Positions 1 to 17,947 of a stretch of 64,000 bases of DNA are shown here, in pieces. This DNA is from Myxococcota bacterium. Lineage in GTDB: Bacteria > Myxococcota_A > UBA9160 > JAFDDA01. Below the pieces are notes generated by a model. The model ran no database searches and had not been told where the DNA came from. It saw only the letters and a list, made by a program, of their open reading frames with translations. Positions within the stretch are counted from its first letter, which is position 1. Every line of letters starts with the position of its first letter. The stretch lies in assembly GCA_965228475.1 (NCBI GenBank), contig OZ245817.1:3584001-3648000 (forward strand). The letters run 5' to 3'. The position numbers were made by a program, and so were the translations under genes.

Positions 1-2
1 CG

Positions 3-455: not shown

Positions 456-2431
456 CGCGTGACGATCGGGAACTCCGGGTCGAAGTCGTCGAGCAGCGAG
501 AAGAACCCGATCAGCGCGAGGCGGCTTCCGTCGACGTCGATGTCGCCGGCGAGAAGCCGGCTGCGGAGCGTGGTCTCGCGCGTGACGATAGCGTCCCAGG
601 TGGCGCGGGAAAGCTTGAGCGTGGCATCCGCGTCGTCGCGCGCGGGGCGTTGCTGGTGGTGGAGGACGCCGTTCTCGAGCCACAGCACGTGGTTCTCCTC
701 CCGGTCCGTGAACTGGAAGTTCAACACGACCTCCTCCTTCGCCGCCTCCGGCCCGTTCAAGCGCACCGCCAGGGCATCGAAGAAGAGATCGCTCGGCATC
801 GCGGAGACGATGTCCGAGGAGCCGGTCGTCTCGAAGGGCAAGGGGGACATGCCCTCGCGCAGCTCCTTCGAACCCGTGAGGTAGAAGGCTCGCCAGGGCC
901 CGGACTCCGCCTGATAGCCGAGCTGGTCGTAGGCCGCCGCGAGCAGCTCGCGCGCCGGCATGAACTCGGGCTCGGCGAACACCAGATGGTTCAGGACCAT
1001 GGCGACGAAGCGGTACTCGCCGGCGTCGTAGCTCTTCTGGGCCTTCTCGAGGAGCGCGTCGCGCCCGCCCATGAACTCGACGTAGCGCGGCCCGGCCTCC
1101 TCGGGCGGAAGCGGATCCAGGTTGGCCGGGTTCCCGTCGAACCAGCCGAAGTAGTGCTGGTAGACCGCCTTCGCGTTGTGCCGGACCGTCCCGTAGTAGC
1201 CGCGCACGGCGAAGGTCCGCGCGAGGCTCTCGGGCAGCTCGATCGTCTCGGCGATCTCGCGCGAAGTCAGGCCGTGATTCGCGAGCCGCAGCGTCTGGTC
1301 GTGGATGTACTTGTAGACGTCGCGCTGCTTCTTCAGGTAGTCGACGATCTCGGCGTTGCCCCAGGTCGGCCAGTGATGGCTCGCGAAGAGGATCTCCGCC
1401 TCACCCCCGAACAGGTCGAGGGTCTCCTGGATGTAGTTGCTCCAGAGAAGCGCATCGCGGACCTTCGCGCCGCGCAGCGTGTAGACGTTGTGCAGCACGT
1501 GGGAGACGTTCTCGGCGCCGCACAGGGCCTTGCGGTCCGGCAGCCAGATCATCATCTCCGCCGGCGCTTCCGCTCCCGGCGTGTTCTGGAAGACCATGCG
1601 GACGCCGTCCACCGTGATCTCGGTCGGCGTCGCATCGACCGTGCGATTGGGTGCACGCATCGTGAAGGAGCCCGGGGTCGACGCCTTGCCGAGCCCGGAA
1701 TCCACGTGCCCGCGTTCGCCGCGGTGGAGCAGGAAGCCGAACATGTAGCTGGCGCGCCGCGACATCGCGGTCCCGGCCAGGACGTTCTCCGAGACCGCTT
1801 CGACGACGAACCCCTCGGGCGCGATCACCGGGATCTCCCGGGCCCGCTCGATCGAGACCATCCCGCCGGCCCCGCCGAAGTGATCGATGTGGCTGTGCGT
1901 GTAGATCATCCCGGTGATCGGGCGCTCGCCGAGGTGCTGGGTGACGAGGCCGAGCGCCGCCTCGGCGGTCTCCTTCGTCATGCCGGGGTCGATCACGATC
2001 CAGCCGCCCGCGCCGGCGACGAAGGTCATGTTCGCGAGGTCGTAGCCGCGGACCTGGTAGATCCCCTCGGCCACTTCGAACAGGCCGTGGATCCCGTTGA
2101 GTTGGGCCTGGCGCCAGAGGCTCGGGTTCACGCTCGGCGGCGCGTCGCCCTCGATGAAGGCGAAGCGCTCGAGGTTCCAGACCTCGCGGCCCTCGGCGTC
2201 GAGGATGACGGGCTTCTCGAGCGCGCCGAGGAATCCGCGCTTCGCCGCGGCGAAGTCGGCCTCGTCCTCGAAGGGAAGTTCGTTGAGAACGGCGGCGTTG
2301 GCGCGCGCGGTCGTGGCGCTCGGTGCGACGTGCCCGCTGGTCTCGTCGCTCGCCTCCGGGAGCGGCGCGTCGTCGCCACAGGCGAACGCCAGCGCGGCCA
2401 GCAGGAGCGCCGCTGCGCGGGGAAGGGTCAT
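452..2431 (-). CDS. Alkyl/aryl sulfatase (SdsA1-type metallo-beta-lactamase fold, dimerisation and SCP2 domains), probable lipoprotein
   Basis: VNPSLWRQAQLN, YQVRGYDLAN, THSHIDHFGG, SHHWP, RGYYGT, WFDGNPANL motifs; N-terminal LAFAC lipobox. Confidence 0.93.
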   Translation of the reverse strand: MTLPRAAALLLAALAFACGDDAPLPEASDETSGHVAPSATTARANAAVLNELPFEDEADFAAAKRGFLGALEKPVILDAEGREVWNLERFAFIEGDAPPSVNPSLWRQAQLNGIHGLFEVAEGIYQVRGYDLANMTFVAGAGGWIVIDPGMTKETAEAALGLVTQHLGERPITGMIYTHSHIDHFGGAGGMVSIERAREIPVIAPEGFVVEAVSENVLAGTAMSRRASYMFGFLLHRGERGHVDSGLGKASTPGSFTMRAPNRTVDATPTEITVDGVRMVFQNTPGAEAPAEMMIWLPDRKALCGAENVSHVLHNVYTLRGAKVRDALLWSNYIQETLDLFGGEAEILFASHHWPTWGNAEIVDYLKKQRDVYKYIHDQTLRLANHGLTSREIAETIELPESLARTFAVRGYYGTVRHNAKAVYQHYFGWFDGNPANLDPLPPEEAGPRYVEFMGGRDALLEKAQKSYDAGEYRFVAMVLNHLVFAEPEFMPARELLAAAYDQLGYQAESGPWRAFYLTGSKELREGMSPLPFETTGSSDIVSAMPSDLFFDALAVRLNGPEAAKEEVVLNFQFTDREENHVLWLENGVLHHQQRPARDDADATLKLSRATWDAIVTRETTLRSRLLAGDIDVDGSRLALIGFFSLLDDFDPEFPIVTR

Positions 2432-2440
2432 CTCGTCCTC

Positions 2441-3223
2441 CTAGCGATTCCGGTACTTGGGGTCGCGGTCTTCGGCGCGGGCCGCCTTCATCTCCGCGTA
2501 GTCCTCGGAGGCAAAGACCATCGACTGCGTCACGGCCTCCTCCTCGATGGAGCGCTTCACCAGCGGATGCCCCATGCGGCCGAGCGTGCGGCGGAACATC
2601 TTCACGGTGAAGGCGGGCGCGGCCGCGATGGCGTGGGCCATCTCCATGGCGGTGGTGTCGAGCTCTGCATCGGGGACGACGCGTGAGACGATGCCGTGGC
2701 GGAGCGCCTCCTCCGCGCCGAGCGGGCGGCCGGTCAGCGCGAGGTCCGCGACGAGGCCGTGCCCCGCCATCTGGAAGAGCCGCGCCGTGCCGCCGGTGTC
2801 CGGAACCACGCCGTGCTTCACCTCGGGAAGCATCATGCGCGCGCTCTCGGCCGCGATGCGGATGTCGCAGAGCAGCGCCCGCTCGAAGGAGCCGCCGATC
2901 GTCCAGCCCTTCATGGCGACGAGGATCGGCGCCGGGCAGCTGAAGAACCGCTGGGTGCCGCGATGGCCGCGCTCGATGAAGTCGAAGTCGCTGATGTCTT
3001 CGGTACGGACGCCGAGTTCGCTGGTGTCGCGGCCCGAGGAGAAGGACTTCCCCTCTCCGCGCCAGACGACGGCGCGCACGCCGGGCGTTTCGTGGATCTC
3101 CGCGAGCACCTCCCAGAGCCGCGTATCCATCTCGTCGTTGGCCGCGTTGTGCTTGTCCGGGCGGTTGTTCGTCATGACGGCGACGGGGCCGTCGAACTCG
3201 AGCAGGATGGTGTCGCTTGCCAA
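2441..3223 (-). CDS. Enoyl-CoA hydratase/isomerase family protein
   Basis: NRPDKHNA, FSSGRD, IGGSFE, CDIRIA, PEVKHG crotonase motifs. Confidence 0.9.
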   Translation of the reverse strand: MASDTILLEFDGPVAVMTNNRPDKHNAANDEMDTRLWEVLAEIHETPGVRAVVWRGEGKSFSSGRDTSELGVRTEDISDFDFIERGHRGTQRFFSCPAPILVAMKGWTIGGSFERALLCDIRIAAESARMMLPEVKHGVVPDTGGTARLFQMAGHGLVADLALTGRPLGAEEALRHGIVSRVVPDAELDTTAMEMAHAIAAAPAFTVKMFRRTLGRMGHPLVKRSIEEEAVTQSMVFASEDYAEMKAARAEDRDPKYRNR

Positions 3224-3235
3224 CGTCTCTCCCTT

Positions 3236-3273
3236 GAAACGGAACCGGGGCGGCCCTCGCCAGGCCGCCCCGG
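3236..3273 (-). terminator. Probable intrinsic terminator downstream of the TRL-like gene
   Basis: 11-bp perfect stem CCGGGGCGGCC/GGCCGCCCCGG (3245-3273), 7-nt loop, followed on minus strand by TTCCGTTTC. Confidence 0.65.
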
Positions 3274-3281
3274 CCTTGGGT

Positions 3282-3596
3282 CTAGTCGCCCCGAACGATC
3301 GTGCAGAACGTCCCGACGATGCCGAGGAAGTTCGTCGACTGATGTTCGATGGTCTTCACGTTCGAGATGCCGCCGTTCGCCGCGGCCGCGCTGATGCTCG
3401 CGTCGCCGGTGGCGATCATGCTCAGGAACGAGCTGGCGCAGGCCTCGCCGCGCTTCGAACCGAGCGAGCCTTCGGCGTCGATCGGCCCCTTCACGTTGGT
3501 GTAGAGCGTGCCGATGGCCGGCGACGCCACGGCCATGCATCCGGCGAGCGGCAGGCTGACGGCCAGGATCAGGGCGAGCTGAGCGATCTTCTTCAT
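3282..3596 (-). CDS. TRL-like family lipoprotein
   Basis: GGAGGG RBS, MKKI..LAGC lipobox, GEAC...ATGDASI..A...GGI...LG....CT.V.G pattern of TRL-like family. Confidence 0.8.
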   Translation of the reverse strand: MKKIAQLALILAVSLPLAGCMAVASPAIGTLYTNVKGPIDAEGSLGSKRGEACASSFLSMIATGDASISAAAANGGISNVKTIEHQSTNFLGIVGTFCTIVRGD

Positions 3597-3677
3597 GATT
3601 CCCTCCATGTCCGGCACGATCCGTCGCACCGGGCCCAAAAGGGTAGAGAGTTGCTCAACGGCCGCATGTGAGCGGGG

Positions 3678-4499
3678 TCACCGCCCACGGAACACCGGCG
3701 CGCGCTTCTCGGCGAAGGCTGCGACGGCCTCGAGGTAGTCCTCGCTCGTCGCGCCTTCGACCATGCGTTCAGCTTCCACGTCGAGACAGCTCGCGAGACT
3801 TTCTGTCAGCGCGCGGTTCAGATTGTCCTTCATGAAGCGCAGGGCGATGGGTGGCCCGGCGGCGATCTTGCGCGCCCAGGCGAAGGCTTCCTCCGAAAGC
3901 GCCTCGTCCGGAACGACTCGGTTCACGATGCCGAGACGCTCGCACTCCGCGGCCGCGACCCGATCCGCCGTGTAGAAGAGCTCCCGCGCCCGGGCCGGCC
4001 CCGCGAGCTGGGTGAGAAACCAGGCGGCGCCATAGTCCCCCGAGAGCCCGAGCCGCACGTAGGAGGTGGTGATGAAGGCCGACTCGGCCGCGATCCGCAG
4101 GTCCGCGGCCAGCGCGATGCCGAGCCCGGCGCCGGCCGCCGCACCGGGCAACGCCACGATCGTCGGCTTCTCCATCGTGTGGAGGAGCCAGGGGATGCCG
4201 TGCTCCTCCCGCAGCTTCGCCACCCGCTCGGCCGGCGACGGCGGCTTGCCCTCACTCTTCATGCGCTTGGTGTCGCCGCCCGCGCAGAACGCGCTGCCCG
4301 CACCGGTCAGGAGGACGCAGCCGACGCCCTCGTCGGCCCGGGCCGCACCGAGCACCGCGAGCAGGGCGTCCTTCATCTCCCAGGTGAGCGCGTTCTTCGC
4401 TTCGGGGCGGTCGAGGGTCACCACGGCGACGCGCTCTTCCACGCGGGCGGTGATCTGGTCGCTGCCGGTCTCGAGCGGGCGGGCCGCGCTTGAACGCAA
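3678..4499 (-). CDS. Enoyl-CoA hydratase/isomerase family protein
   Basis: DRPEAKNAL, FCAGGD, AAGAG, ADLRIA, GLSGDYG; TTG start at 4499 after GGAGG. Confidence 0.88.
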   Translation of the reverse strand: MRSSAARPLETGSDQITARVEERVAVVTLDRPEAKNALTWEMKDALLAVLGAARADEGVGCVLLTGAGSAFCAGGDTKRMKSEGKPPSPAERVAKLREEHGIPWLLHTMEKPTIVALPGAAAGAGLGIALAADLRIAAESAFITTSYVRLGLSGDYGAAWFLTQLAGPARARELFYTADRVAAAECERLGIVNRVVPDEALSEEAFAWARKIAAGPPIALRFMKDNLNRALTESLASCLDVEAERMVEGATSEDYLEAVAAFAEKRAPVFRGR

Positions 4500-4607
4500 G
4501 GGATCCTCCGGGGCCCGGCCCGATGCCGGGGCCCTGCGAGGGCACAGCCTATCACCCCGGGCGCCCATGCTACCGTGCGCGCGGGTTCCGATTCTCGAGG
4601 AGAAGGC

Positions 4608-5486
4608 ATGGGCTTGCCCGAACCGCCGGCGCTCGGCGCGGCCGCGCTCCCGGAGGGGACGTTCGCCGGCCGGGTCGTGCTCGTGACCGGGGGCGGAACC
4701 GGCCTCGGAAAGGCCATGGCCGTCGAATTCGCGCGCCTCGGCGCCGCCGTGGCCATCGTCTCCCGCAAGGAAGAGCACCGCAGGGCCGGCGTGGCCGCGG
4801 TCGAAGCGGTGGGCGCCCGGGCCATGGACACGGCCTGCGACATCCGGGACCCGGAGGCCATCGCCGCGAGCTTCGACGCCGTCGAAGCCGAGCTCGGCCG
4901 GCCCGACGTGCTCGTGAACAACGCCGCGGGGAACTTCCCCGTCCCCGCCGAGGACATGAGCCCGAACGCCTGGCGCGCGGTCGTCGACATCGTGCTGAAC
5001 GGGACGTTCTTCTGCTCGCGCGAGCTGGCGCGGCGGCACATCGCCGCCGGCAGTCCGGCCTCGATCGTGAACGTCGGCGCGGCCTACGCCTGGACGGGCG
5101 GCCCGGGCTTCGCCCACAGCGCGGCCGCCAAGGCCGGCGTGAAGAACCTCACCGAAACGCTCGCCGTCGAGTGGGCGCCCTACGGCATCCGCGTGAACGG
5201 CCTCGTGCCCGGCCTCTTCCCTCACGACGACGAGACCCACGCCATCCGCAGCGTGCCCGAGCGCCGCAAGAGCGACGCCCTGCGCTCGCCGGCGCACCGC
5301 GTCGGTCAGCCCCACGAGCTCGGCTGGGCGGCGACCTTCCTCGCCTCGCCCTTCGCCTCCTACGTCACCGGCCACACGCTCGTCGTCGACGGGGCGAACT
5401 GGCAGCGGCGCGCGATGCTGATGCCCGAGTTCACCCCCATCCGCGAGCAGCTCGGCAAGCCGCCCTTCACCCTGGACTCGGAGTAA
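4608..5486 (+). CDS. SDR oxidoreductase (2,4-dienoyl-CoA reductase-like)
   Basis: TGGGTGLG, NNAAGNF, HSAAAKAGV, LAVEWAPYGIRVN; GAGGAG RBS. Confidence 0.9.
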   Translation: MGLPEPPALGAAALPEGTFAGRVVLVTGGGTGLGKAMAVEFARLGAAVAIVSRKEEHRRAGVAAVEAVGARAMDTACDIRDPEAIAASFDAVEAELGRPDVLVNNAAGNFPVPAEDMSPNAWRAVVDIVLNGTFFCSRELARRHIAAGSPASIVNVGAAYAWTGGPGFAHSAAAKAGVKNLTETLAVEWAPYGIRVNGLVPGLFPHDDETHAIRSVPERRKSDALRSPAHRVGQPHELGWAATFLASPFASYVTGHTLVVDGANWQRRAMLMPEFTPIREQLGKPPFTLDSE

Positions 5487-5490
5487 CCCG

Positions 5491-6108
5491 GTGGCCCTCG
5501 ACCTCGCCGAACTCGTCGCCCCGGGCCACACGGCCCTCGTCACCCAGGAGATCCAGCGCGGGGTCGTCGGGGATCTCTCGCAGCTCCCGGAACTCGCGGC
5601 CGCCGCGCAGCCGACCTTCCCGAACATCGCGCGGCTCGCGGAGGCGGCCCGCGCCGCGGGCGTCCCGGTCCTGCACTGCACGGCCGAGCGCCGCGCCGAC
5701 GGCCAGGGCGCCAACGCCAACGCCCGCATCTTCCAGTACATGGCGAAGGCGCCGGTCAAGCTCCTGCCGGGCTCCGAGGCCGCGGCGATCGTGCCCGAGG
5801 TCCCGGTCGCCGAGTCCGACGTCGTCGTGCCCCGGCTGCACGGCCTCTCCCCCTTCCAGGGGACCGAGCTCGACTTCCTGCTGCGCAACCTCGGCGTGCG
5901 CACGATCATCGGGACGGGCGTCTCGGTGAACGTCGCGATCACCAACCTGAGCCTCGACGGCGTCAACGCCGGCTATCAGATGGTGCTCCCGCGCGACGCC
6001 GTGGCGGGCTTCCCGGAGAGCTACGTCGAACAGGTCTTCCAGCACACCCTCGGCGCCGTCGCGACCGTGACGGACACCGAGGCGATCCTGCGAGCCTGGG
6101 AATCATGA
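5491..6108 (+). CDS. Isochorismatase/cysteine hydrolase family protein
   Basis: TALVTQEIQ, SPFQGTELD.LLRNLGV.T, GVSVNVAI, DAVAG; usual catalytic Cys appears replaced. Confidence 0.8.
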   Translation: MALDLAELVAPGHTALVTQEIQRGVVGDLSQLPELAAAAQPTFPNIARLAEAARAAGVPVLHCTAERRADGQGANANARIFQYMAKAPVKLLPGSEAAAIVPEVPVAESDVVVPRLHGLSPFQGTELDFLLRNLGVRTIIGTGVSVNVAITNLSLDGVNAGYQMVLPRDAVAGFPESYVEQVFQHTLGAVATVTDTEAILRAWES

Positions 6109-6806
6109 GCGAGATCCCGATCGAACCGACGAACACTCCGGAGGTTCCGAAACCATCGGGCACGGTCGTGGCCGTGCGCGACGCCTCGGCCGGGCTCGAG
6201 GTGCTGCTGCTCCAGCGCGCGGTGCGCCCGGGCCAGGACGGCCAGGCGCCCTGGGTCTTCCCCGGCGGCAAGGTCGAACCCGCCGACAGCGAGCGCGGCG
6301 GCGGGCACGCGGAGCACGACGCCCGCCACGCCGCCGTCCGCGAAGCCGAGGAAGAGGCCGGCCTCGCCCTCGAGCCGAGCGGCCTCGTGACGATCTCACG
6401 CTGGATCACGCCCAAGGTGCGCGCCAAGCGCTTCGATACCTGGTTCTTCCTCGCGCGGGTCGCCGAGCACGCTCCGGTGACCGTGGACGGCCAGGAGATC
6501 GGCGACCACGCCTGGCTCCGGCCGGGAGACGCCATCGACCGCTACGAGGCGGGCCGCCTCTCGCTCGCGCCGCCCACCTTCGTGACCGTGAGCTGGCTGC
6601 TCGAGCACTCGGACACCGAGACCGCCGCGCGCCAGCTCGGCGAAGCCGACCTCATCACCTTCGAGCCGCGCATCCACGTCATCGAAGGCGGCGCCTGCAT
6701 CCTCTACCCGGGCGACGCCGGCTACGACGACGGCACCATCGAGCACGCCGGCCCGAAGCACCGCCTCTGGAGCGACGGGAAGAAGTTCCGCTACGAAAGG
6801 GCCTAG
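6105..6806 (+). CDS. NUDIX hydrolase
   Basis: WVFPGGKVE...AAVREAEEEAG Nudix box; WITP...RFDTWFF. Confidence 0.9.
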   Translation: MSEIPIEPTNTPEVPKPSGTVVAVRDASAGLEVLLLQRAVRPGQDGQAPWVFPGGKVEPADSERGGGHAEHDARHAAVREAEEEAGLALEPSGLVTISRWITPKVRAKRFDTWFFLARVAEHAPVTVDGQEIGDHAWLRPGDAIDRYEAGRLSLAPPTFVTVSWLLEHSDTETAARQLGEADLITFEPRIHVIEGGACILYPGDAGYDDGTIEHAGPKHRLWSDGKKFRYERA

Positions 6807-6809
6807 AGC

Positions 6810-7892
6810 CTACGTGAGCAGCCCCTTCTCTTCTTCGACCTGATTGGACACAAAAGCCAGGTGATGGCTGGTCCCAGCCTGTCGCCACTTGCTTCCGTTC
6901 CCTGGACCCTCTACCTCGACAGAGCAGTTGAAGAAATAGGCGTCGCCGTCGCTAAACGACCGTCCGGAGTACTCATCACGCACCACGAGCTTCCGACAGA
7001 GTTCGTGGAATTGGCCGTTTCCACGCCCTCGAGTGCCCTCTCCCTTGATTACAAGCCAGGCATGCTCGGTGGTGTACCGGATATTCGCGCTCATGTTCAT
7101 GACCGCCCGATCCACGTCAGGCGAGATCGGGTGAGCCACCCCGTAATCTGCATACCGAGGAGTTCGCACAGATCGGAGGCTACGCACGAGTGCTGTCCAC
7201 AGAGTCCACTCGAGACGCGGGATGAACTCCTCGGAGTTGCGTTCCACGTTGGTCAGGAACTCGGGGAACGACCCACCTGCGAACCAAAGCGACCGCCACC
7301 GATCCATCAACGGCAGAGACGAGAAGGTGTCAACGAGCAGTTGGAGATCGGACGCCTCATCTTCTTCTCGAAGGAACTTTAGATCGACAACCAGATCCAC
7401 CTCTTCCGGCGGAAGCTCCAAATGGTCGAGAAGAGCCTCGACACTATCTTTGACAGCGACATGCCCAAAGACATCTTCACGTTCAAGCCGAACAATCACA
7501 CCGCTCCCGGCGCGGCGGGCCTGTTGACTCGCGACACGGTTGTAGCTGTCGTCCCGGTTCAGTCCCGTCGATGGAATGACAATCGTGTCGTGATCCAGCG
7601 CCCACGAGAGAACGGTGTCGAGGGCGATAGCTCCGCTGTCAGCACCGTCGCCATCGAGGAACCCTCCGTCGACGCCACAGCCCTGAGCACTCCGTAGGGC
7701 GCCGCCGAGCCCCCTAACAAAACTCTCGACGTGGCCTTCGAGAGACTTCGCCGGGCGTTCCTCTTTGAAGTCCCAAGGAATCCGCGGAATCTCGAGGATC
7801 GGACGTTCGCCCTCTCGGAAGCCGCGGTCCCTCAGGGCCCAAAACTCTCCCTGCTTGCCCTTCAGGATCGGCATGTATGTCGGCACATTCAT
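6810..7892 (-). CDS. Beta family protein (P4 Beta-like)
   Basis: N-terminal YMPILKGKQGE..AL, GSFP, YADYG, IRYT, GD.Y and C-terminal GN...WR..G..HHL pattern; start overlaps upstream stop (ATGA). Confidence 0.78.
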   Translation of the reverse strand: MNVPTYMPILKGKQGEFWALRDRGFREGERPILEIPRIPWDFKEERPAKSLEGHVESFVRGLGGALRSAQGCGVDGGFLDGDGADSGAIALDTVLSWALDHDTIVIPSTGLNRDDSYNRVASQQARRAGSGVIVRLEREDVFGHVAVKDSVEALLDHLELPPEEVDLVVDLKFLREEDEASDLQLLVDTFSSLPLMDRWRSLWFAGGSFPEFLTNVERNSEEFIPRLEWTLWTALVRSLRSVRTPRYADYGVAHPISPDVDRAVMNMSANIRYTTEHAWLVIKGEGTRGRGNGQFHELCRKLVVRDEYSGRSFSDGDAYFFNCSVEVEGPGNGSKWRQAGTSHHLAFVSNQVEEEKGLLT

Positions 7893-9106
7893 CGCCCAAA
7901 GACCTCCGGGAAGTGGCGTCGGACCTCTCCCGACGGCACGAGCGAACCCAAGATTCTGTAGTCGTTCGCTTCAAAGCGGATTCGGCCGGCCACTACAGAG
8001 GGGTGAACCCCCAGGCTCCGAGCTAGATCGAGAACCGCAGGAACACTCCGGACCGAATAGGCGCGGCTGGCACGAAATGCTGGCGACGGAACTAGCGCCT
8101 CGCGGGCAACCAGGTCCGCCTCTTTCTCGACAGCTGACTCCTTCGTCGGAGACTCCATGTCATCGATGTATGGCGCGCCTACCTCCGGGTCAAGATGGAG
8201 AGCGATGTGGGCCAGCTCATGCAGCAAGCAGAACCAGAACGAGTCCACCCGATCATGGCGGATCGTCAAGGCGACGATCGGCTTGCCGTCCGCCGACAAC
8301 AGTGCTGCACCATCTAGGTGCGTTCCGGTGAGATGACGTTCGACAACGAGATGCACTCCCAGATCCCCAAGCGCCGCTACGGCACGGAGGGGGCCATCCT
8401 CAAAGACGCTGAGCTGGGCGATACGGCGGAAGCATGCTGAATCGATTCGGGTCCGATCGAACTCGGTTTCCAGTGGCGACTCGGCAGCGCGAATCCGGAC
8501 TCTCGTGCACCATGCGTCCAGAGCATAAAGGTTGATTGCCCTTGCGCTGCGGAGCGTCCTGGTACGCTTGAGTAGCGAGCCGTAGGCAGATCCATGCCCA
8601 AGGAGGGGCTCAGCGAACCGCTCCATCAATTCCTTGGCGTGCGATTTCATGATGCGCTTGGGTGCATCAAGCCAGCCGAGCTTGGCCATCTCCCTGAGCG
8701 GATACTTGGACCAGTCCGGCTCGGCCCCAGCCTGCACTTCGCTCGGTTCATCTCGAAGGAACACCGCCGCAGGAATCCCGAGCCCTCGGTGTAGCGCGCG
8801 CATCATCGTCAGCGTGAGCGGTCTCTTGTGATTCAGCACTTCAGAGACACGCGACCTACTGCCGATGAACGGAATCAGATCGCGCTGTTCAAGGCCCATC
8901 TGCTCCATCCGAAACTTGATCGCATCGACTGGTGTGGGCAGTTCCAGAGGGAAAGCTTTGCCCTCGTACTCTTCAACGAGCATCGAGAGCACTTCAAGCG
9001 ATTCGGAGTCCGGCGACCCAACCTCCGGACTTGTCCGCAACAAGCGATCGATCTCGGCCAGGGCGGCCGCGTGATCTGTTTCATTTCGGATCTTGGTCAG
9101 GCGCAT
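7889..9106 (-). CDS. HigA-type XRE-HTH antitoxin fused to ImmA/IrrE Zn metallopeptidase
   Basis: PTPVDAIKFRMEQMGLEQRDL...GSRSRVSEVLNHKRPLTL HTH; LDGAA, R.DR.D.FWF.LLHELAH (HExxH), EKEAD. Confidence 0.9.
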   Translation of the reverse strand: MRLTKIRNETDHAAALAEIDRLLRTSPEVGSPDSESLEVLSMLVEEYEGKAFPLELPTPVDAIKFRMEQMGLEQRDLIPFIGSRSRVSEVLNHKRPLTLTMMRALHRGLGIPAAVFLRDEPSEVQAGAEPDWSKYPLREMAKLGWLDAPKRIMKSHAKELMERFAEPLLGHGSAYGSLLKRTRTLRSARAINLYALDAWCTRVRIRAAESPLETEFDRTRIDSACFRRIAQLSVFEDGPLRAVAALGDLGVHLVVERHLTGTHLDGAALLSADGKPIVALTIRHDRVDSFWFCLLHELAHIALHLDPEVGAPYIDDMESPTKESAVEKEADLVAREALVPSPAFRASRAYSVRSVPAVLDLARSLGVHPSVVAGRIRFEANDYRILGSLVPSGEVRRHFPEVFGR

Positions 9107-9107
9107 A

Positions 9108-9392
9108 TCAGTCAAACTTCCAGCTGTCGTACTGTTCATGGGTTCCGACTCGGAGAACCAAGACAGTTCCCGGGTCGAAATGAATCCGAGTATCTAGGCG
9201 GTACTTGTTGCCACCGATGTTGAACACGTAGTGACCGCCGATGATGCTCATGTGGGGGTAGCGTGCCTTGACCGAGGCCGGACCAACCCAAGTGGCCTCT
9301 TTGACTTCAGCTACCCACGACGCGAGCGGCGAGCGAGCTCGCTCGTGCTTTCGAATGAACTTGGCCAAGAGATGTGTCCCGAGGACGCGCAC
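9108..9392 (-). CDS. higB: HigB-family type II toxin (mRNA interferase)
   Basis: W...V....W.....VK..YP, VFNIGGNKYRL, VGTHEQYD; GTG start inferred; toxin-first gene order. Confidence 0.85.
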   Translation of the reverse strand: MRVLGTHLLAKFIRKHERARSPLASWVAEVKEATWVGPASVKARYPHMSIIGGHYVFNIGGNKYRLDTRIHFDPGTVLVLRVGTHEQYDSWKFD

Positions 9393-9410
9393 CGCCAGGA
9401 TATACATTAG

Positions 9411-9472
9411 TCCCAAATTGGGATCAACTAAATCGATCCCAATCTGGATAGCGAATAAAAGACGAAAGTCAA
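9411..9472 (-). promoter_or_regulatory. Putative higB promoter with overlapping operator palindromes
   Basis: TTGACT -35 (9472-9467); palindrome TCCCAAATTGGGA (9411-9423); perfect 9-bp inverted repeat ATTGGGATC-N9-GATCCCAAT (9417-9443). Confidence 0.65.
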
Positions 9473-9530
9473 GAACGGCAGACCACCCGCGTTGGAGCGA
9501 CTTAGCAGGGGGATCGGTGGTCGCTTGCCC

Positions 9531-10775
9531 CTACGCCGCGCGACGCTCCGGCGTGTACTTCACCTTCATCTCGACACAGGACCGCACGAGGGCGCTCGGC
9601 CGCAGGACGGGGCCGTTCGTCGCGTAGGTCATGTCGGGGAAGCGGCGCAGCAGCTCCTCGAAGGCCACGCGCAGCTCCATGCGGGCGAGATTCGCGCCGA
9701 GGCAGAAGTGGTTGCCGAGGCCGAAGCCCACGTGCTGCGGATTGCGTTCGACGCGGAACTCGTTCGGCGCCTCGAACTGCTCGGGGTCGCGGTTGGCAGC
9801 CTTGTAGACCATCAGCACCTGCTGGCCCTTTTTAATCTGTTTGCCGCGAAGCTCCGTATCGGCCGTCGCCGTGCGCGAGAAGCTGTTCACCGGCGCGACG
9901 TAGCGCACGACCTCCTCGCAAGCGCTCGTCATGAGCGACGGGTTCTCGATCAGCTTGCGGCGCTCCTCCGGGTTCTCGATCAGGGCCTGCATGCCGCCGG
10001 CCAGGGCGTTCCGCGTCGTCTCGTTGCCGGCGACCATCAGGATCACCGAGAGCATGACGAGCTCGTTGGTGGCGTTCGCGAGATGCTCGTCGGTGTCGAG
10101 GCCCCCGACGCTCTGCTTGCCGAGATCGAAGCGCCCGAGCACGCCCTCGTCGTCGGCATTCACGAGGATGCTGATCAGGTCGTCCTTCGGTTCGGCGCGG
10201 CGGGCCTCGGCGATCTCCTTCACGAGCGTCGAGTACGCGAGGAAGGCGGCGCCGGACTTCGCCATGATCTCTGGCTTGTCCTGGTTCCCGTCGCCCGCGA
10301 TCATCGCGTCGCTCCACTGGTGGAACTCCTTCTGCTTCTCGCGGGGAATCCCGATCATCTCGGCGATCAGCAGGATCGGCAGGGGCGCGGCGACGTCGTC
10401 GACGAACTCGCACTCGCTCTGGCCGGCGATGGCGTCGAGCGTCTCCTTGGTGATGGCGCGGAACTTCTCTTCCCAGAGCTTCACCATGCGCGGCGTGAAG
10501 CCCTTGTTGATCAGGCGGCGCAGGTTCGTGTGGCGCGGCTCCGCTTCGTCGATCAGCCCGATCTTCGGCGCGTCCTTCCCGGGGCGGACGCCGAAGCCCG
10601 AGGTGAAGAGATCCTGGTTCTTCGAGACGGCGACGACGTCGGCGTACTTCGTGAGGATCCAGCACTGGGTCTTCTCGGCCCAGTAGACGGGCTCGTTCTG
10701 CTGCAGCCAGCGCAGGCGTTCGGGCATCTTTCCGTCCCAGACGAGGGAGTCCGCGTAGTCGACGTTCGGGTCCAT
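9531..10775 (-). CDS. Cytochrome P450
   Basis: AGNETT, EEVVR, FGLGNHFCLG haem-Cys motif. Confidence 0.95.
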   Translation of the reverse strand: MDPNVDYADSLVWDGKMPERLRWLQQNEPVYWAEKTQCWILTKYADVVAVSKNQDLFTSGFGVRPGKDAPKIGLIDEAEPRHTNLRRLINKGFTPRMVKLWEEKFRAITKETLDAIAGQSECEFVDDVAAPLPILLIAEMIGIPREKQKEFHQWSDAMIAGDGNQDKPEIMAKSGAAFLAYSTLVKEIAEARRAEPKDDLISILVNADDEGVLGRFDLGKQSVGGLDTDEHLANATNELVMLSVILMVAGNETTRNALAGGMQALIENPEERRKLIENPSLMTSACEEVVRYVAPVNSFSRTATADTELRGKQIKKGQQVLMVYKAANRDPEQFEAPNEFRVERNPQHVGFGLGNHFCLGANLARMELRVAFEELLRRFPDMTYATNGPVLRPSALVRSCVEMKVKYTPERRAA

Positions 10776-10777
10776 CT

Positions 10778-11452
10778 TCAACCTTGGCCTTTCGACGGGG
10801 CACCGCCCGGCAAGAGCCGGCCGACGACCTCCTGGAGGAATTGGGTCTGACGAGCCAGGGCCTCGGACGAGGTGAGATCCTCGCCGGAGAGTTCCTGGTA
10901 GAACGGCGCGATCGTGAAGTAGCCGAGCACGACGTGGTACATGGCGAGCACGAGCAGCGGGACCTGTTCCTCGGGCCAGGGCGCGCTGCCCGGGTCCGCC
11001 GCCACCATCTCGGCGGCGCGGTCGAGGGCGGTGGCGATCCAATCGCGCAGGGCCGGCGTGAGGCGCGTGCCGCCGGTGAGCGTCTCGAACTGCACGAGGC
11101 GCAGGAGGTTCGGGCGCGAGCCGAGGAGCTCGATCACCTGCTCGAGAAACTCCCGGTGCCCGGCCTCGTCCGAACGCACGCCGACGAAGCCGGCGAGCAG
11201 CTCGACCACGGGCCGGATGCCGCGCTCGAGGACGGCGGCGTAGAGCTCGTCCTTGCTCTCGAAGTGGTTGTAGAGGCTCGGCGTGCGGATGCCGACGGCT
11301 TCGGCGACGTCGCGCATGGTCGTGCCGGCAAAGCCGCGCTCGGCGAAGAGCGCCTCGGCGGCGTCGAGGATGCGCTCGGCGGTGCGCTCGCCGCGGGCGG
11401 TCCGCAGGGAGGGCTTCAGCGGCGTGACGTTGCTGGCGGCGGGGTTGGGCAA
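10778..11452 (-). CDS. TetR/AcrR family regulator
   Basis: ILDAAEALFAERGFAGTTMRDVA...SLYNHFESKDEL HTH. Confidence 0.92.
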   Translation of the reverse strand: MPNPAASNVTPLKPSLRTARGERTAERILDAAEALFAERGFAGTTMRDVAEAVGIRTPSLYNHFESKDELYAAVLERGIRPVVELLAGFVGVRSDEAGHREFLEQVIELLGSRPNLLRLVQFETLTGGTRLTPALRDWIATALDRAAEMVAADPGSAPWPEEQVPLLVLAMYHVVLGYFTIAPFYQELSGEDLTSSEALARQTQFLQEVVGRLLPGGAPSKGQG

Positions 11453-11463
11453 GGCGGCTCCGA

Positions 11464-11508
11464 GAAACTAACGAGCGCTAGTTTCGACCGAACGGCGCGG
11501 GGAGTCAA
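11464..11508 (-). promoter_or_regulatory. Promoter and operator of the tetR-P450 operon
   Basis: TTGACT (11508-11503)-17 nt-GAAACT; inverted repeat GAAACTAACG-AG-CGCTAGTTTC (11464-11485, 1 mismatch) overlaps the -10. Confidence 0.7.
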
Positions 11509-11546
11509 TCCTTTCTTTGTGCAAGTTTCGTAAAGAAGACGGATGG

Positions 11547-11975
11547 TTACAGTCGGCGCCAGCGGACCAGGGCCAGGTCGGGGGCGACCGTCTCGAAGAC
11601 CGCCTCGACCGGGGCCCCGATCTCGACCGGGCCCTCCCCCGCCCGCTCGATCCCGCCTCCGGGCGCCGCCAGGTTCCCGATCAGCCGGACCGCCGGCTCC
11701 TCGTCGAGCGCCACGGCCACCACCACGTAGGGTGCGAGCTCGGCGTATGCGGGCAGCAGCGGCGGGTGCGGCACCACGGAGGACCAGATCGTCCCGCGCC
11801 CGGAGACGGTCTTCCAACCGTGCTCGCGGTGCGGCGCGAAGGGGCTCGCCGCGCGCGGCGGAAAGAACAGCCGGCCCGTCTCCGGACAGCACGGGATGCG
11901 AAGCTCGCCCGCGAGCGCACCCTCGAAGAACGGGCGCGCGAGGTCGTCGACCGGCGGCAGCAGGAGCTCGCTCAT
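11547..11975 (-). CDS. DUF35 (Zn-ribbon/OB-fold) protein
   Basis: PFFEG...GEL.IP.C...G...FPPR, VSGRGTIWS, PYVV.V.LDE; Zn ligands partly degenerate. Confidence 0.85.
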   Translation of the reverse strand: MSELLLPPVDDLARPFFEGALAGELRIPCCPETGRLFFPPRAASPFAPHREHGWKTVSGRGTIWSSVVPHPPLLPAYAELAPYVVVAVALDEEPAVRLIGNLAAPGGGIERAGEGPVEIGAPVEAVFETVAPDLALVRWRRL

Positions 11976-12010
11976 GCCGACCTCGAGATGAGTTCGCTCA
12001 TGCGGACCTC
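11964..12010. repeat. Tandem 21-bp direct repeat of a stop/start junction
   Basis: GAGCTCGCTCATGCCGACCTC (11964-11984) and GAGTTCGCTCATGCGGACCTC (11990-12010), 2 mismatches. Confidence 0.85.
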
Positions 12011-13155
12011 AGGAGGAGCGCGCTCGTCGGGACGCCCTCCCCTCCCGTCACCAGACACGTCTGCGCACCCTCGACCTGGCTGCACGACTCGCCGCGCATC
12101 TGGCGCACGCCCTCGTTGATGAGGTTGAAGCCGTGGACGTAGGCCTCGGAGAGCCCGCCCCCGGAAGTGTTCACGGGCAGGCGTCCGCCGAGGGCGATGC
12201 CGCCGTCCTCGGTGAAGGCCGCCCCCTCGCCGCGGCCGCAGAAGCCATAGCCCTCGAGCGAGAGCAGGACGAGCGGGCTGAAGGCGTCGTAGAGCTGGGC
12301 CGTCGCGACCGCCTCCGGGCCGAAGTCCGACTGGCGGTAGAGCGCCTCGGCGCAGGCCCAGGCCGGGCCGCGCAGCGGGTCCTCGCACCAGTAGTTCACC
12401 ATCGTCTGGTGCTGGCGCGGGAGACCCTGGGCGAAGGCGTGGACGTAGACCGGGGGCTTGCGCAGGTCGCGCGCGCGTTCAGCCGAGACCACCACACAGG
12501 CGAGCGCTCCGTCGCTCTCGAGGCAGTTGTCGAAGAGGCCAAGCGGCTCGGAGATCCAGCGCGCCGCATGGTACTGCTCGCGCGAGAGCGTCTTTCCGTG
12601 CATCACGGCCCGCGGGTTGCGGTTGGCGTGGCCGCGCACGGCGAGCGCCACGTTCGCCAGGTGGTCCCGCGTGGCGCCGAACTCGTGCAGATAGCGCCGC
12701 GTCAGCAGCGCGATCTCGTCGACCGGACGCAGCAGGCCGTGCGGACGGGTGAACTGGGAGGCGGGCGTCGGCGGCGGGGGCCCGGCGGCCGCCCAGGGCC
12801 GCTGCCCCGAGCCCCGCTTGCGCGAACGCCAGGCAACCCCGACCCGGCACTGGCCGCTCGCGACCGCCATCGCGAGGTGCCCGACCGTCGCGGGCCCGGC
12901 GCCTCCGCCGTAGCCGACCTGGCTGAAGAACGTCACGTCCCCCACGCCGAGGGCGGCGGCGATCGCGACTTCGTCGCTGGTCTCCATCGTGTAGGAGGCG
13001 AGGCCGTCGACCTCGGCGGGCGCGATGCCGGCGTCGTCGAGGGCGGCGAGGATCGCGTCGAGCGCGAGGCGCGTCTCGGACGGTTCGAGGCGCTTCGCGA
13101 AGGGGGTCTCCCCGATCCCGGCGATGACCGCGGCGTCCTTCAGCACGGCCGCCAT
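11998..13155 (-). CDS. Lipid-transfer protein/thiolase-like (Ltp2-type aldolase candidate)
   Basis: AGIGET, DNCLESDG, QLYDAFS, PVNTSGGGLSEAYVHG; thiolase Cys replaced (YGGGAGP). Confidence 0.87.
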   Translation of the reverse strand: MAAVLKDAAVIAGIGETPFAKRLEPSETRLALDAILAALDDAGIAPAEVDGLASYTMETSDEVAIAAALGVGDVTFFSQVGYGGGAGPATVGHLAMAVASGQCRVGVAWRSRKRGSGQRPWAAAGPPPPTPASQFTRPHGLLRPVDEIALLTRRYLHEFGATRDHLANVALAVRGHANRNPRAVMHGKTLSREQYHAARWISEPLGLFDNCLESDGALACVVVSAERARDLRKPPVYVHAFAQGLPRQHQTMVNYWCEDPLRGPAWACAEALYRQSDFGPEAVATAQLYDAFSPLVLLSLEGYGFCGRGEGAAFTEDGGIALGGRLPVNTSGGGLSEAYVHGFNLINEGVRQMRGESCSQVEGAQTCLVTGGEGVPTSALLLRSA

Positions 13156-13173
13156 CATAGAGCCGGCCCGAAG

Positions 13174-13187
13174 TGGAACACGTTTCA
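13174..13187. promoter_or_regulatory. KstR-type operator motif TnnAACnnGTTnnA
   Basis: TGGAACACGTTTCA in the AT-rich gap between divergent ltp-like and NMO-like genes. Confidence 0.55.
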
Positions 13188-13265
13188 ATTTTGGGAATTC
13201 CGTTGTAGTCTGGCGGGCATCGGCCCCGGCCCCGGAGCGGGCTCGGCAGGCCGCGGAGACGCCCC

Positions 13266-14384
13266 ATGCGCACGGAACTCTGCGAGAAGCTCGGCCTCGA
13301 ATTCCCGATCTTCGCCTTCACCCACTGCCGCGACGTGGTCGCCGCGGTCTCGAACGCCGGCGGCATCGGCGTGCTCGGCGCCGTCGGTTTCACGCCGGAG
13401 CAGCTCGCCATCGAGCTCGACTGGATCGACGACCACACGGACAAGCCCTACGGCGTCGACATCGTGATCCCGGGGAAGTACGAGGGCCAGGGCGAACAGC
13501 TCGACGCCGAAGAGCTCGAGGCGAAGCTCAGCGCGATGATTCCCGACGAGCACCGCGAGTTCGCGTCGAAACTCCTGGCCGACCACGACGTCCCCGAGCT
13601 GCCCGAAGGCGAGAAGGCGCGCGAGCTGCTCGGCTGGACCGCCGTCACCGCCGGGCCGCAGGTCGAGCTCGCCCTGAAGCACGACAAGGTCAAGCTCATC
13701 GCGAACGCCCTCGGCACGCCGCCGGCCGAGGTCGTGAAGGAGATCCAGGCCGCCGGCCGGCTGGTCGGCGCACTCTGCGGCAGCCCGAAGCACGCCATCA
13801 CCCACAAGCAGGCAGGCCTCGACTTCATCATCGCCCAGGGCACCGAAGGCGGCGGCCACACGGGCGAGATCGGCAGCATGGTGCTCTGGCCGCAGGTGAT
13901 CGAGGCGGTGAAGCCCGTGCCGGTGCTCGCCGCGGGCGGCATCGGGAACGGCCGGCAGATGGCCGCGGCCCTCGCCATGGGATGCCAGGGCGTGTGGACC
14001 GGCTCCCTCTGGCTGACGGTGGAGGAAGCCGAGGCGTCGCCGGAGCAGAAGCAGTCCTACCTCGACGCCACGAGCCACGACGCCGTCATCTCGCGCTCCT
14101 GGACCGGCAAGACCTGCCGCATGCTGCGCAACGACTGGACCGAGGCCTGGGGGCGCGAGGACACGCCCGACCCGCTCGGCATGCCGCTGCAGTTCATGGT
14201 CACCGCCGACGCCGTCTCGCGCGTCCACCGCTACCCGGGCAAGTCCCAGCAGGTCGCGTTCAACCCGGTCGGCCAGGTCGTCGGGACCATGAACGACGTC
14301 GAGCCCGTGCGCGACGTGATCCAGCGCATGGTCGAAGAGTACGTCGACGCCGTCGATCAGCTGAACGCGCTGCTCCCGGAGTAG
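13266..14384 (+). CDS. Nitronate monooxygenase/enoyl-reductase-like flavoprotein (NMO family)
   Basis: FAFTHCRDVVAAVS.AGG.GVLG, QGTEGGGHTG, VLAAGGIG.G, GVWTGS. Confidence 0.9.
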   Translation: MRTELCEKLGLEFPIFAFTHCRDVVAAVSNAGGIGVLGAVGFTPEQLAIELDWIDDHTDKPYGVDIVIPGKYEGQGEQLDAEELEAKLSAMIPDEHREFASKLLADHDVPELPEGEKARELLGWTAVTAGPQVELALKHDKVKLIANALGTPPAEVVKEIQAAGRLVGALCGSPKHAITHKQAGLDFIIAQGTEGGGHTGEIGSMVLWPQVIEAVKPVPVLAAGGIGNGRQMAAALAMGCQGVWTGSLWLTVEEAEASPEQKQSYLDATSHDAVISRSWTGKTCRMLRNDWTEAWGREDTPDPLGMPLQFMVTADAVSRVHRYPGKSQQVAFNPVGQVVGTMNDVEPVRDVIQRMVEEYVDAVDQLNALLPE

Positions 14385-14492
14385 GGTCCACCAGACGGCA
14401 CCTCCAGGGCAGGTCCCGAGAACCGCCGACCCCCAGCGGTGTAGCTCGGGTATGGTGAACGTGCCCGGGCCACCGCGGGCTGGAGGTCCCCC

Positions 14493-15071
14493 ATGCCGTC
14501 CGATCGCTCGCCTTCCGCTGTCTCTCTGGTACTCGCCATCCTTCTCGTTCCCCTCGCCCTGCTTGCCACGGGCGCCCAGCGCGGCGCTCGCCCGGGAGCC
14601 GACGCGGCGGTCCAGGACCAGGTGCGCCACCTCGAAGCCCAGGTGCGGTCTCTCGGGAACGAGCTCGCCCAGCTGAAGAAGCTGGTGAAACAGTCGGACG
14701 TGAACGTGGCCCTCCTCCCGGACGACCAGCAGTTCGAGATCAAGGTCCGAGAAGTCATGAAGGTCGAGATCAAGAAACTCGGCATCCACGACGCCCTGTT
14801 CCAAAACCACGACGATCGGATCCGCACCAACAAGGACAAGATCGCCGCGCTGGGCGGCTCTGCATCCGCCGCGAGTGGCGACCTCGAGGCTCGGATCGAC
14901 GCCGTCGAGGCCATGGCCACGAAGACGAAGGCCGACCTGAAGAACCTGATCGACCTCCCGGGCAGCGGAGGCACGATGAAGGTCAAGATCAAGCAGCTCT
15001 TCAACGCGTACCAGAACGAGACGCTCGACTCCTACGGAGGGGGCTACTGCTTCCGGGCGCGCAGCTGCTGA
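14493..15071 (+). CDS. Hypothetical exported coiled-coil protein
   Basis: GGAGG RBS, hydrophobic N-terminus, heptad-like segments, host-like codon use, C-terminal CxxxxxC. Confidence 0.65.
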   Translation: MPSDRSPSAVSLVLAILLVPLALLATGAQRGARPGADAAVQDQVRHLEAQVRSLGNELAQLKKLVKQSDVNVALLPDDQQFEIKVREVMKVEIKKLGIHDALFQNHDDRIRTNKDKIAALGGSASAASGDLEARIDAVEAMATKTKADLKNLIDLPGSGGTMKVKIKQLFNAYQNETLDSYGGGYCFRARSC

Positions 15072-15108
15072 CGGATCCCGCCCGTGCTGGGCGGGAAGGA
15101 GGAACGAC

Positions 15109-15675
15109 GTGCGAATTGAAGCCACGCTTCGGATCCTGTTGACCGCGCTGCTGATGCTCGCTCCGTTGCAGGTCACCGCCGCATCCCACTCGGAAGCGCC
15201 CCGCATCACGGCGGTGCGCTCGGAGCTCGCGACCCGCCGCGTCGAGCTTTCGGCCCGCCGCGCGGAGCTGGCGGTGCACCTCGGCCACGCGGAGGCCAGC
15301 GATGCCGAGCGCGCAGAGATCGCCGCGGCCCAGGCGGCGGCCGACGAGCTGCTTCGGATGCTTCAGCAGGGCCGGCTGGACCGGGCACGTGCCGAGACGC
15401 TTCATGCCCAGGTCGCCGCGGCCGCGTTGGCCACCGCGGCGATTCCGTACGTGGGCCCGGTGATCGCGGCAATCCAGGCGGTGGTCGCCGCGATCGTCCG
15501 GTTGATCGCGGAGCTCGAGGCCAAGGCGCTCGAGCAGAAGGCCGCCGAGAAGGAGCAGGAGGCGGAGGACAAGGAGATAGGCGCCCGCGACCGGCCCGAG
15601 GCCCGAGCCGCCGAAACGCAGGACACGGGAGGGACGCGCCCTCTACCTGCCGCGCGAAAGATCCCGAAGCCCTGA
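15109..15675 (+). CDS. Hypothetical exported helical protein
   Basis: AGGAGG RBS before GTG; signal peptide ending VTA-A; hydrophobic AAIPYVGPVIAAIQAVVAAI segment. Confidence 0.65.
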   Translation: MRIEATLRILLTALLMLAPLQVTAASHSEAPRITAVRSELATRRVELSARRAELAVHLGHAEASDAERAEIAAAQAAADELLRMLQQGRLDRARAETLHAQVAAAALATAAIPYVGPVIAAIQAVVAAIVRLIAELEAKALEQKAAEKEQEAEDKEIGARDRPEARAAETQDTGGTRPLPAARKIPKP

Positions 15676-15724
15676 CCTCATCCGCACCCTGCTCCCCGAG
15701 TGGAGCTGTCCTACGCTCCGCGGC

Positions 15725-17883: not shown

Positions 17884-17911
17884 GCGTGAGAGAGGGCCCC
17901 GGGGCCGTTTC

Positions 17912-17943
17912 TTGACCGCGCGTTCAGGCATCCCTTATAAGGG
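17912..17943 (+). promoter_or_regulatory. Sigma70-like promoter with a palindrome over the -10
   Basis: TTGACC (17912-17917), TATAAG (17936-17941), perfect palindrome CCCTTATAAGGG (17932-17943); ATG 6 nt downstream, no RBS. Confidence 0.65.
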
Positions 17944-17947
17944 TTGA

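Follow-up and report, generated by a model that had tools for sequence, protein, structure and literature searches.

The window analysed here is a 64,000-nucleotide stretch (64 kb) of the genome of a Myxococcota bacterium (contig OZ245817.1, positions 3,584,001 to 3,648,000), which carries three adjacent minus-strand genes, termed A, B and C. The best explanation for this triplet, with a probability of roughly 0.85, is that it represents a horizontally acquired member of the defence system PD-lambda-2 and constitutes an autoregulated, three-gene abortive-infection module, the individual mechanistic steps of which form a model. Gene A (9392..9108, minus strand; stop codon TGA at 9110-9108) encodes 94 amino acids and begins with a GTG codon that agrees with the N-terminus of the family profile. 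It is separated by the single base 9107 from gene B (9106..7889, minus strand; 405 amino acids, ATG at 9106, stop codon TGA at 7891-7889), which gives the junction TGA-t-ATG. The ATG of gene C (7892..6810, minus strand; 360 amino acids, ATG at 7892-7890) shares bases with the TGA stop codon of B in an ATGA overlap, and the two genes are translationally coupled.

Membership of the PD-lambda-2 family is well supported by sequence comparison. All three proteins match the PD-Lambda-2 models of PADLOC-DB over their full length and in the order A-B-C: residues 1-93 of A align to profile positions 1-94 of 94 of PD-Lambda-2_A (PDLC03981, 3.1e-28), residues 4-401 of B to positions 5-398 of 402 of PD-Lambda-2_B (PDLC03982, 3.4e-139) and residues 1-353 of C to positions 1-352 of 374 of PD-Lambda-2_C (PDLC03983, 1.5e-48). 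The arrangement of three adjacent, co-directional genes is likewise that of PD-lambda-2. Identity is used here in the sense of per-protein matches to PADLOC models, which differ from a system-level call; the system rule of PADLOC and DefenseFinder for PD-Lambda-2 requires all three genes. NCBIfam provides no family-level name, as A and C had no matches and B had only sub-threshold ones (spr1629-type antitoxin, Lit).

A preliminary description of the locus had proposed an undescribed defence or stress toxin system. This claim of novelty fails because the triplet is an already named and partly characterised system (PADLOC; PMC9519451), an outcome that the description itself had listed as refuting its proposal. 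Its observations on the locus were otherwise confirmed throughout: the 1-nt gap and the ATGA overlap were confirmed in the sequence, the domain calls (HigB, HTH-peptidase and Beta) agree with profile matches to HigB_toxin, Peptidase_M78 and Beta_protein, and the idea of a tripartite, toxin-antitoxin (TA)-like defence module with a self-contained protease was correct.

A functional selection in E. coli led to the discovery of PD-lambda-2 (Vassallo, Doering, Littlehale, Teodoro & Laub 2022, Nat Microbiol, PMC9519451). In that study, the components of the system are given as a HigB-like protein, a HigA-like Xre helix-turn-helix (HTH) protein with a C-terminal peptidase and a relative of the P4 antitoxin, and the system is placed among the abortive-infection defence systems (PMC9519451). 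Overexpressed B of the E. coli prototype was reported to be toxic by itself and to be rescued by A, while C was dispensable for neutralisation, yet needed for defence against lambda-vir (PMC9519451). These genetics conflict with the toxin and antitoxin roles assigned in the preliminary description, according to which peptidase activation frees HigB. In a preprint of October 2026, Beta_protein (PF14350) was renamed “TIM-B”; the accessible part of this purely computational work lists HigB (a BECR RNase) among the effectors coupled to TIM-B, with a metallopeptidase, sometimes fused to an HTH domain, encoded between them (bioRxiv 10.64898/2026.10.19.760177). Fusions of Xre and COG2856 domains together with RelE-family toxins had already been predicted to form three-component TA-like circuits (Makarova, Wolf & Koonin 2009, PMC2701414). 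A mechanistic paper on PD-lambda-2 did not turn up in the literature search.

Protein A is homologous to HigB-type (RelE-fold) mRNA interferases, as indicated by its match to the Pfam family HigB_toxin (2.8e-23) and by alignments to the HigB chains 5ycl_B and 5ifg_A of E. coli and Shigella at about 5e-7. The residues W26, W35, F57, G61, N62, R65, T84, H85 and Y88, which are conserved in a family alignment of 64 sequences, are all retained. Because the conserved HigB residues are kept, A may well be an active RNase.

Protein B combines two domains. Its Pfam match to Peptidase_M78 (2.3e-7) is accompanied by a match to HTH_3 that lies under the Pfam cut-off (0.0024), and a profile built from 23 B homologues aligns residues 6-115 to E. 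coli HigA (5ycl_A, 5ifg_B) at 3e-11. The same profile yielded a weak match (E 0.0058) to an HTH protein of 393 amino acids in the PDB (9vzy). An AlphaFold2 (AF2) model of B reached a predicted local distance difference test score (pLDDT) of 89.9, with values mostly above 90 over residues 190-400 and with low-confidence loops at residues 121-135 and 171-182, between the domains. Foldseek matched the first ~120 residues to the HigA chains 6kmq_B and 6kml_B of solved HigBA complexes (31-34% identity, probability 1.00) and the C-terminal half to CapP (7t5t) and PprI/IrrE (8sln, 8slm, 3dte). The HExxH zinc-peptidase motif, H296-E297-L-A-H300, was read from the sequence at 8207..8221 (minus strand); H296, E297 and H300, together with H304 and E327, are invariant in alignments of 23 and of 58 family members. 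Judged from these sequence and model comparisons, B is a HigA-type HTH domain (approximately residues 1-116) fused to a CapP/IrrE-type zinc metallopeptidase (approximately residues 230-400). B and C are each present as a single copy in the genome.

The sole Pfam match of protein C is to Beta_protein (PF14350; 2.9e-63, positions 1-340 of 342), which answers a check that the preliminary description had proposed for the third gene. An AF2 model with a pLDDT of 94.5 and a predicted template modelling (TM) score of 0.93 assigns C to the TIM barrels with high confidence. A Foldseek search against the PDB gave 48 matches at E<=0.001, and those among the matches listed are mostly TIM-barrel enzymes; they are generic, with TM scores below 0.4 when normalised to the query. 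Similarly, the VIA aligner, which is independent of Foldseek, returned Z scores of 11-13 to dozens of TIM-barrel families. The longest VIA alignments were obtained with tRNA-guanine transglycosylases (TGTs; 1iq8_A with Z 12.0 over 267 residues and 3unt_A with Z 11.8 over 275), while about 50 TIM-barrel families lie within 2 Z units. These lengths are compatible with the link to deazaguanine transglycosylases (TGT/DpdA) drawn in the TIM-B preprint and leave it unsettled.

Among 78 sequences, P31, D170, P210, R226, D249, Y250, D317, G331, W336 and H344 of C are invariant, and several of the polar ones are located in or at the ends of predicted beta-strands of the AF2 model. Active sites of TIM barrels are usually found at such strand positions, and D170, R226, D249, Y250, D317 and H344 may accordingly mark the location of an active site in C. 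Prediction of a B+C complex gave a median score of 0.43, compared with 0.00 for the best of three controls, and the runs, based on custom alignments, showed at least 78% contact agreement and a partner pLDDT of at least 85. When the tool was calibrated, 116 of 157 solved complexes passed the mark, as did 2 of 215 mismatched pairs, and passes at or below 0.60 comprised only 18 of the 157 complexes and both mismatches. The prediction thus lends weak support to a contact between B and C.

Several lines of evidence identify the triplet as horizontally acquired: its GC content is low both overall and at third codon positions (GC3), the islet is not shared with a genome of the same genus (G001), and the Beta protein is rare in the order. 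GC3 amounts to 67-68% in A, B and C, as opposed to 89-96% in eight neighbouring genes, and the islet (6798..9527) has, at 59.2%, the lowest GC content of all 2730-bp stretches in the window (mean 70.5%), in line with the foreign composition noted in the preliminary description. The flanks are syntenic with G001 at 74-78% nucleotide identity, DNA homology breaking off at 6797 and setting in again at 9528. None of the listed matches from 30 relatives covers the islet. Of the 151 genomes searched within the order, only two yielded PF14350, namely that of the window and G048, the genome of locus L021, whose C is 42% identical to that of the window. At the position of the triplet, G001 carries a glutathione S-transferase (GST)-like gene for 266 amino acids on the opposite strand (L002 2852-3652), the closest paralogue of which in the genome of the window is 50% identical and located elsewhere. 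The slot between the NUDIX and cytochrome P450 genes hence holds different cargo in the two genomes.

The wider family shows that A and B often occur without C. At least 1808 of 8000 candidates scored were related to B at E<=1e-3, and at least 595 of 600 matched B stretches in species-representative genomes were confirmed. In the best 80 loci by B match, which come from many phyla, A was found upstream of B in 66 (tblastn). Single-sequence tblastn placed C beside B in 14 of the 80, which is an undercount; a hidden Markov model of C built from 12 sequences detected it in 18, the extra ones via fragments. Twelve loci have less than 1100 nt downstream of B and are not assessable for C. Of the remaining 68, 12 carry an intact full-length C, four carry fragmented or frameshifted versions (L012, L043, L050 and L052) and 52 carry none. 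Partial C matches were also obtained in L030 and L062, near contig ends, and 4-nt overlaps between B and C recur in L061, L066, L077 and L080. The recurrence that the preliminary description had proposed to check holds for the widespread A-B pair, while an intact C is confined to 12 of the 68 assessable loci. In L012, L043 and L050, the A and B matches are kept and the B match is free of stop codons, yet C is fragmented, which suggests repeated loss of C beside intact-looking A-B pairs. In L052, too, a broken C adjoins a B that looks intact.

A Pfam scan of downstream open reading frames (ORFs) covered 22 loci, comprising 18 without a tblastn match to C and four Beta controls. The 18 loci contained unrelated families in seven cases, no family in nine and Beta fragments in two. 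The unrelated families were CoA-transferase III (twice), an AbiEii-like ATPase, RadC, AbiEi, a type I restriction R subunit and DUF6933. In L026, L087 and L089, all with A-B and without C, defence-type genes lie downstream of B (AbiEii-like AAA_21 ATPase, type I restriction R subunit and AbiEi), which hints at a location of some C-less A-B pairs in defence islands.

In a quick maximum-likelihood tree of B (IQ-TREE, 69 rows; support by the Shimodaira-Hasegawa-like approximate likelihood ratio test, SH-aLRT), 12 of the 80 rows were left out as partial B sequences, including L068, L076 and L077, all of which have C. The window pairs with L021 (SH-aLRT 95), and both fall within a group of 14 rows (support 94), eight of which have an intact C, four a fragmentary C and two no C. 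A clade of 32 B rows (support 99) is devoid of C, and L081/L082, with an intact C, and L052/L062, with a partial one, are placed outside the 14-row group. Most C-linked B proteins thus belong to one group of a larger, two-gene A-B family. In L068, L076 and L077, C adjoins a B whose match begins near residue 110, so that the HigA-type N-terminus is lacking, and there is no A match, which corresponds to a pair of peptidase and TIM-B without HigB. The alphaproteobacterial records L081 and L082 have one and the same B, which is highly divergent (30% identical to that of the window) and precedes an intact C; tblastn detected no A.

Relatives are also found on mobile elements. B is matched by 436 plasmid records, and in 20 of these the match spans at least 80% of the protein; one Acinetobacter plasmid carries an annotated pair of HigB and ImmA/IrrE with no C. 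Beta homologues occur in six phage records. Those of the actinobacteriophages DumpsterDude and Powerball (Gordonia) and Mycofy1 (Mycolicibacterium) are full-length or partial, 25-30% identical and annotated as hypothetical. In the Escherichia phage Rac-SA53 (L093 2992-4627), a P4-type beta and a convergent, overlapping cII-like gene are located beside hok/mok and IS1 in a Rac-like prophage.

The presumed promoter and operator region comprises the 138 nt between the stop codon of the P450 gene and the start of A (9393..9530, minus strand). It contains a TCCC-N5-GGGA palindrome at 9411..9423, 18 nt upstream of the GTG of A, which reads TCCCAAATTGGGA. This palindrome is overlapped by a larger inverted repeat just upstream of A (9413-9425/9435-9447, 12 of 13 positions complementary); shuffling the 120-nt upstream region 100 times never produced a repeat that equalled it. 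With the same script, palindromes of TTCCC/GGGAA half-sites were found upstream of A in many unrelated loci. Among 63 assessable loci, defined by an A match starting at query residue <=3 and by sufficient upstream DNA, 42 from across phyla have TCCC-N5-GGGA within 120 nt upstream of A, compared with 7 of 3734 windows of 120 nt taken as controls from elsewhere in these loci; in the C-linked B group, all 13 of 13 rows have the motif. E. coli HigA and HigBA are described as autoregulating via promoter palindromes (PMC11980606). From the recurrence of the motif and this analogy, we infer that TCCC-N5-GGGA is a candidate family-wide operator bound by the HigA-type HTH domain of B.

These observations can be combined into a model of how the module might work. 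At rest, A, as a HigB-type ribosome-dependent mRNase, would be bound to the N-terminal HigA-type domain of B, each keeping the other inactive, a step proposed on the grounds that the pair is homologous to HigBA complexes solved for E. coli and that A rescues B toxicity in that host. The A-B complex would further repress its own promoter via the TCCC-N5-GGGA palindrome. C, the translationally coupled TIM barrel, is proposed to act as the infection-dependent trigger or sensor and not as a neutraliser, because of the E. coli genetics and because C has decayed repeatedly in loci whose A-B pair is intact. Once triggered, the CapP/IrrE-type peptidase of B might cut its own HigA-type part, the adjoining linker or a partner copy, and a toxic activity, either the HigB RNase or B itself, would be freed to halt growth before phage release. 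Bearing on this last step, the HExxH motif, H304 and E327 of B are invariant and its fold resembles those of CapP and PprI/IrrE, which are proteases cleaving XRE-type repressors; the low-confidence loops at residues 121-135 and 171-182 between its domains are in keeping with such a cut.

A more far-reaching formulation extends this model to a modular device. An autonomous, operator-controlled and mutually inhibitory core of HigB and HigA-peptidase, found in hundreds of species, would be joined by a detachable TIM-barrel C acting as a phage sensor, which would gate a protease fused to its own HigA-type substrate, either by direct contact or by a small-molecule or nucleobase reaction, with TCCC-N5-GGGA serving as operator throughout the family. 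As a whole, this formulation is tentative and rather unlikely to hold in every part.

A number of points weigh against the interpretation as an autoregulated abortive-infection module with C as its trigger. The TCCC-N5-GGGA core is missing from 21 of the 63 related upstream regions, the palindrome of the window ends in GGGAC and not in GGGAW, and the bare 8-base core occurs at chance level in the 64-kb window (2 found, 2.47 expected), so that the case for an operator depends on where the core lies and on its repeated occurrence among relatives. A sigma-70 consensus scan of 6600-9700 found no promoter; two candidates picked by eye, TTGATC-N17-TATATC and TTGACT-N16-TATCCA, are weak, fail the rule of the scan and are not relied on. 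The support for a contact between B and C is weak and no interface was returned. Even in E. coli the killing effector is ambiguous, because B toxicity was shown by overexpression only (PMC9519451), and the TIM-B preprint assigns C the opposite sign, that of a constitutive negative regulator (bioRxiv 10.64898/2026.10.19.760177).

The last of these points is part of an alternative model, stated in the same preprint, in which TIM-B constitutively restrains the system through a deazaguanine-transglycosylase-like nucleobase transfer, the outcome of which would be either a covalent mark or a soluble product; infection would interrupt this reaction, and the metallopeptidase would add proteolytic derepression (bioRxiv 10.64898/2026.10.19.760177). 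The confident TIM-barrel fold of C is consistent with this proposal, as is the fact that the longest alignments among its many tied TIM-barrel matches are those to two TGTs, and P4 Beta is known to neutralise Gop (PMC9122126 citing Ghisotti 1990). The about 50 families within 2 Z units and the generic Foldseek matches, however, do not single out TGTs. In E. coli, C is needed for defence and not for neutralisation (PMC9519451), which is easier to reconcile with an activator or sensor than with a repressor, and intact A-B pairs are found with C decayed or missing altogether. A repressor role of C is consequently considered unlikely. The same genetics and the same decay bear on the proposal of the preliminary description, namely a new tripartite system similar to toxin-antitoxin-chaperone (TAC) systems, with HigB as toxin, the HigA-peptidase as self-cleaving antitoxin and Beta in place of SecB as chaperone or co-antitoxin. 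The domains are those named there, A keeps the conserved HigB residues, and the translational coupling of B and C is accompanied by a weakly supported contact (0.43 against 0.00 in the best control). Nevertheless, this proposal is highly improbable: the system already has a name, B of the E. coli prototype is toxic alone and rescued by A with no need for C (PMC9519451), and C, instead of being a SecB-type chaperone, has a TIM-barrel fold whose invariant polar residues are enzyme-like. Moreover, the decay of C beside apparently intact A-B in L012, L043 and L050 would be lethal were C a required co-antitoxin. Of the roles suggested for Beta, that of a sensor is retained, and those of chaperone and co-antitoxin are disfavoured, as C is unneeded for neutralisation (PMC9519451).

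It is also conceivable that the triplet is a selfish addiction cassette acting by post-segregational killing, or an inactive passenger in this host, with no role in phage defence. The wide occurrence of the A-B core without C (52 of the 68 assessable loci), the plasmid-borne B homologues, such as the Acinetobacter pair, and the lack of defence genes adjoining the islet agree with such a scenario. On the other side, all three ORFs are intact and keep the family-invariant catalytic residues, and defence in E. coli was demonstrated for the triplet that includes C (PMC9519451). Addiction and defence are, in addition, not mutually exclusive. A cassette or passenger without any defence role is therefore regarded as quite improbable, and a PD-lambda-2 abortive-infection module is the preferred interpretation.

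The islet is surrounded by metabolic genes, in agreement with the lipid-catabolism setting given in the preliminary description. On one flank, genes for an enoyl-CoA hydratase, a short-chain dehydrogenase/reductase, an isochorismatase-like protein and a NUDIX hydrolase are found, the last of which is convergent with C and lies 3 nt downstream of it. The other flank holds P450, TetR, ChsH2-like OB-fold and thiolase-like genes; this region (9531-13188; P450, TetR, ChsH2-like OB-fold/zinc-ribbon, thiolase-like) bears a likeness to steroid or lipid side-chain degradation clusters. The annotation of the flanking genes revealed no defence genes among the neighbours of the islet. No tRNA is present in positions 1-20000 of the window, no integrase was found among the neighbouring genes at the islet junctions, and a convincing direct repeat flanking the islet was not found. 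The sole candidate is a pair of 18-nt sequences (6759-6776/9484-9501) with 78% identity and a spacing of 2725 nt, which brackets the islet almost exactly and is probably due to chance.

By itself, the locus is ordinary and would be labelled by a standard defence-system annotator. For work on sensing, cleavage and killing by PD-lambda-2, the grouping of C-linked B proteins, the decay of C and the palindrome conserved across phyla could be of use.

Compared with known systems, the triplet shares the Beta/TIM-B family with the gop-beta-cII locus of satellite phage P4, which acts as an anti-phage system on lambda and P1 (Ghisotti 1990; Rousset 2022, PMC9122126). It differs in having neither a Gop-like gene, as rightly pointed out in the preliminary description, nor a convergent, overlapping cII: B is located upstream of C, and the convergent gene downstream is that of the NUDIX hydrolase. 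The beta-cII pair of prophage Rac-SA53, in contrast, shows the P4-type layout. The Xre-COG2856 fusions associated with RelE or PIN toxins likewise place a fused HTH-zinc protease in an operon with a RelE-family toxin, and the 2009 prediction, in its available text, includes no Beta/TIM-B gene (PMC2701414). With the type II HigBA systems of E. coli K-12 and Shigella (5ifg, 5ycl, 6kml, 6kmq), A shares sequence similarity to HigB, the first ~116 residues of B share sequence and fold with HigA, and the toxin gene comes first. Canonical HigBA consists of two genes with a small, stand-alone HigA, whereas B of the window has a zinc-peptidase extension of ~290 residues and is followed by a third gene; the roles in toxicity assays are, furthermore, reversed in the PD-lambda-2 prototype (PMC9519451).

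TAC systems, to which the preliminary description had likened the triplet with SecB replaced, have a SecB-like third gene and an unstructured C-terminal chaperone addiction (ChAD) extension on the antitoxin. The likeness is not upheld, as C of the window is a Beta_protein TIM barrel and B has, in place of an unstructured tail, a folded metallopeptidase domain. The switches CapH/CapP, ImmR/ImmA and DdrO/IrrE (PprI) are closer with respect to B, the C-terminal half of which resembles CapP and PprI/IrrE, with an intact HExxH motif and an XRE-type HTH domain as presumed substrate or partner. CapP and PprI are activated by single-stranded DNA. In B, unlike in these switches, HTH domain and protease form one chain, and the output would be a toxin and not the transcription of a separate regulon. 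The TIM-B systems resemble the triplet in combining a HigB effector and a TIM-B protein of TIM-barrel fold with an HTH-metallopeptidase between them, and differ in the predicted function of TIM-B as a negative regulator (bioRxiv 10.64898/2026.10.19.760177). The closest correspondence is with PD-lambda-2 itself: a HigB-like protein, a HigA-type HTH domain with an M78 peptidase and a P4-Beta-like protein are encoded in the same order in a co-directional operon, the difference being that the prototype was studied experimentally in its host E. coli and the copy in the window is known from sequence alone.

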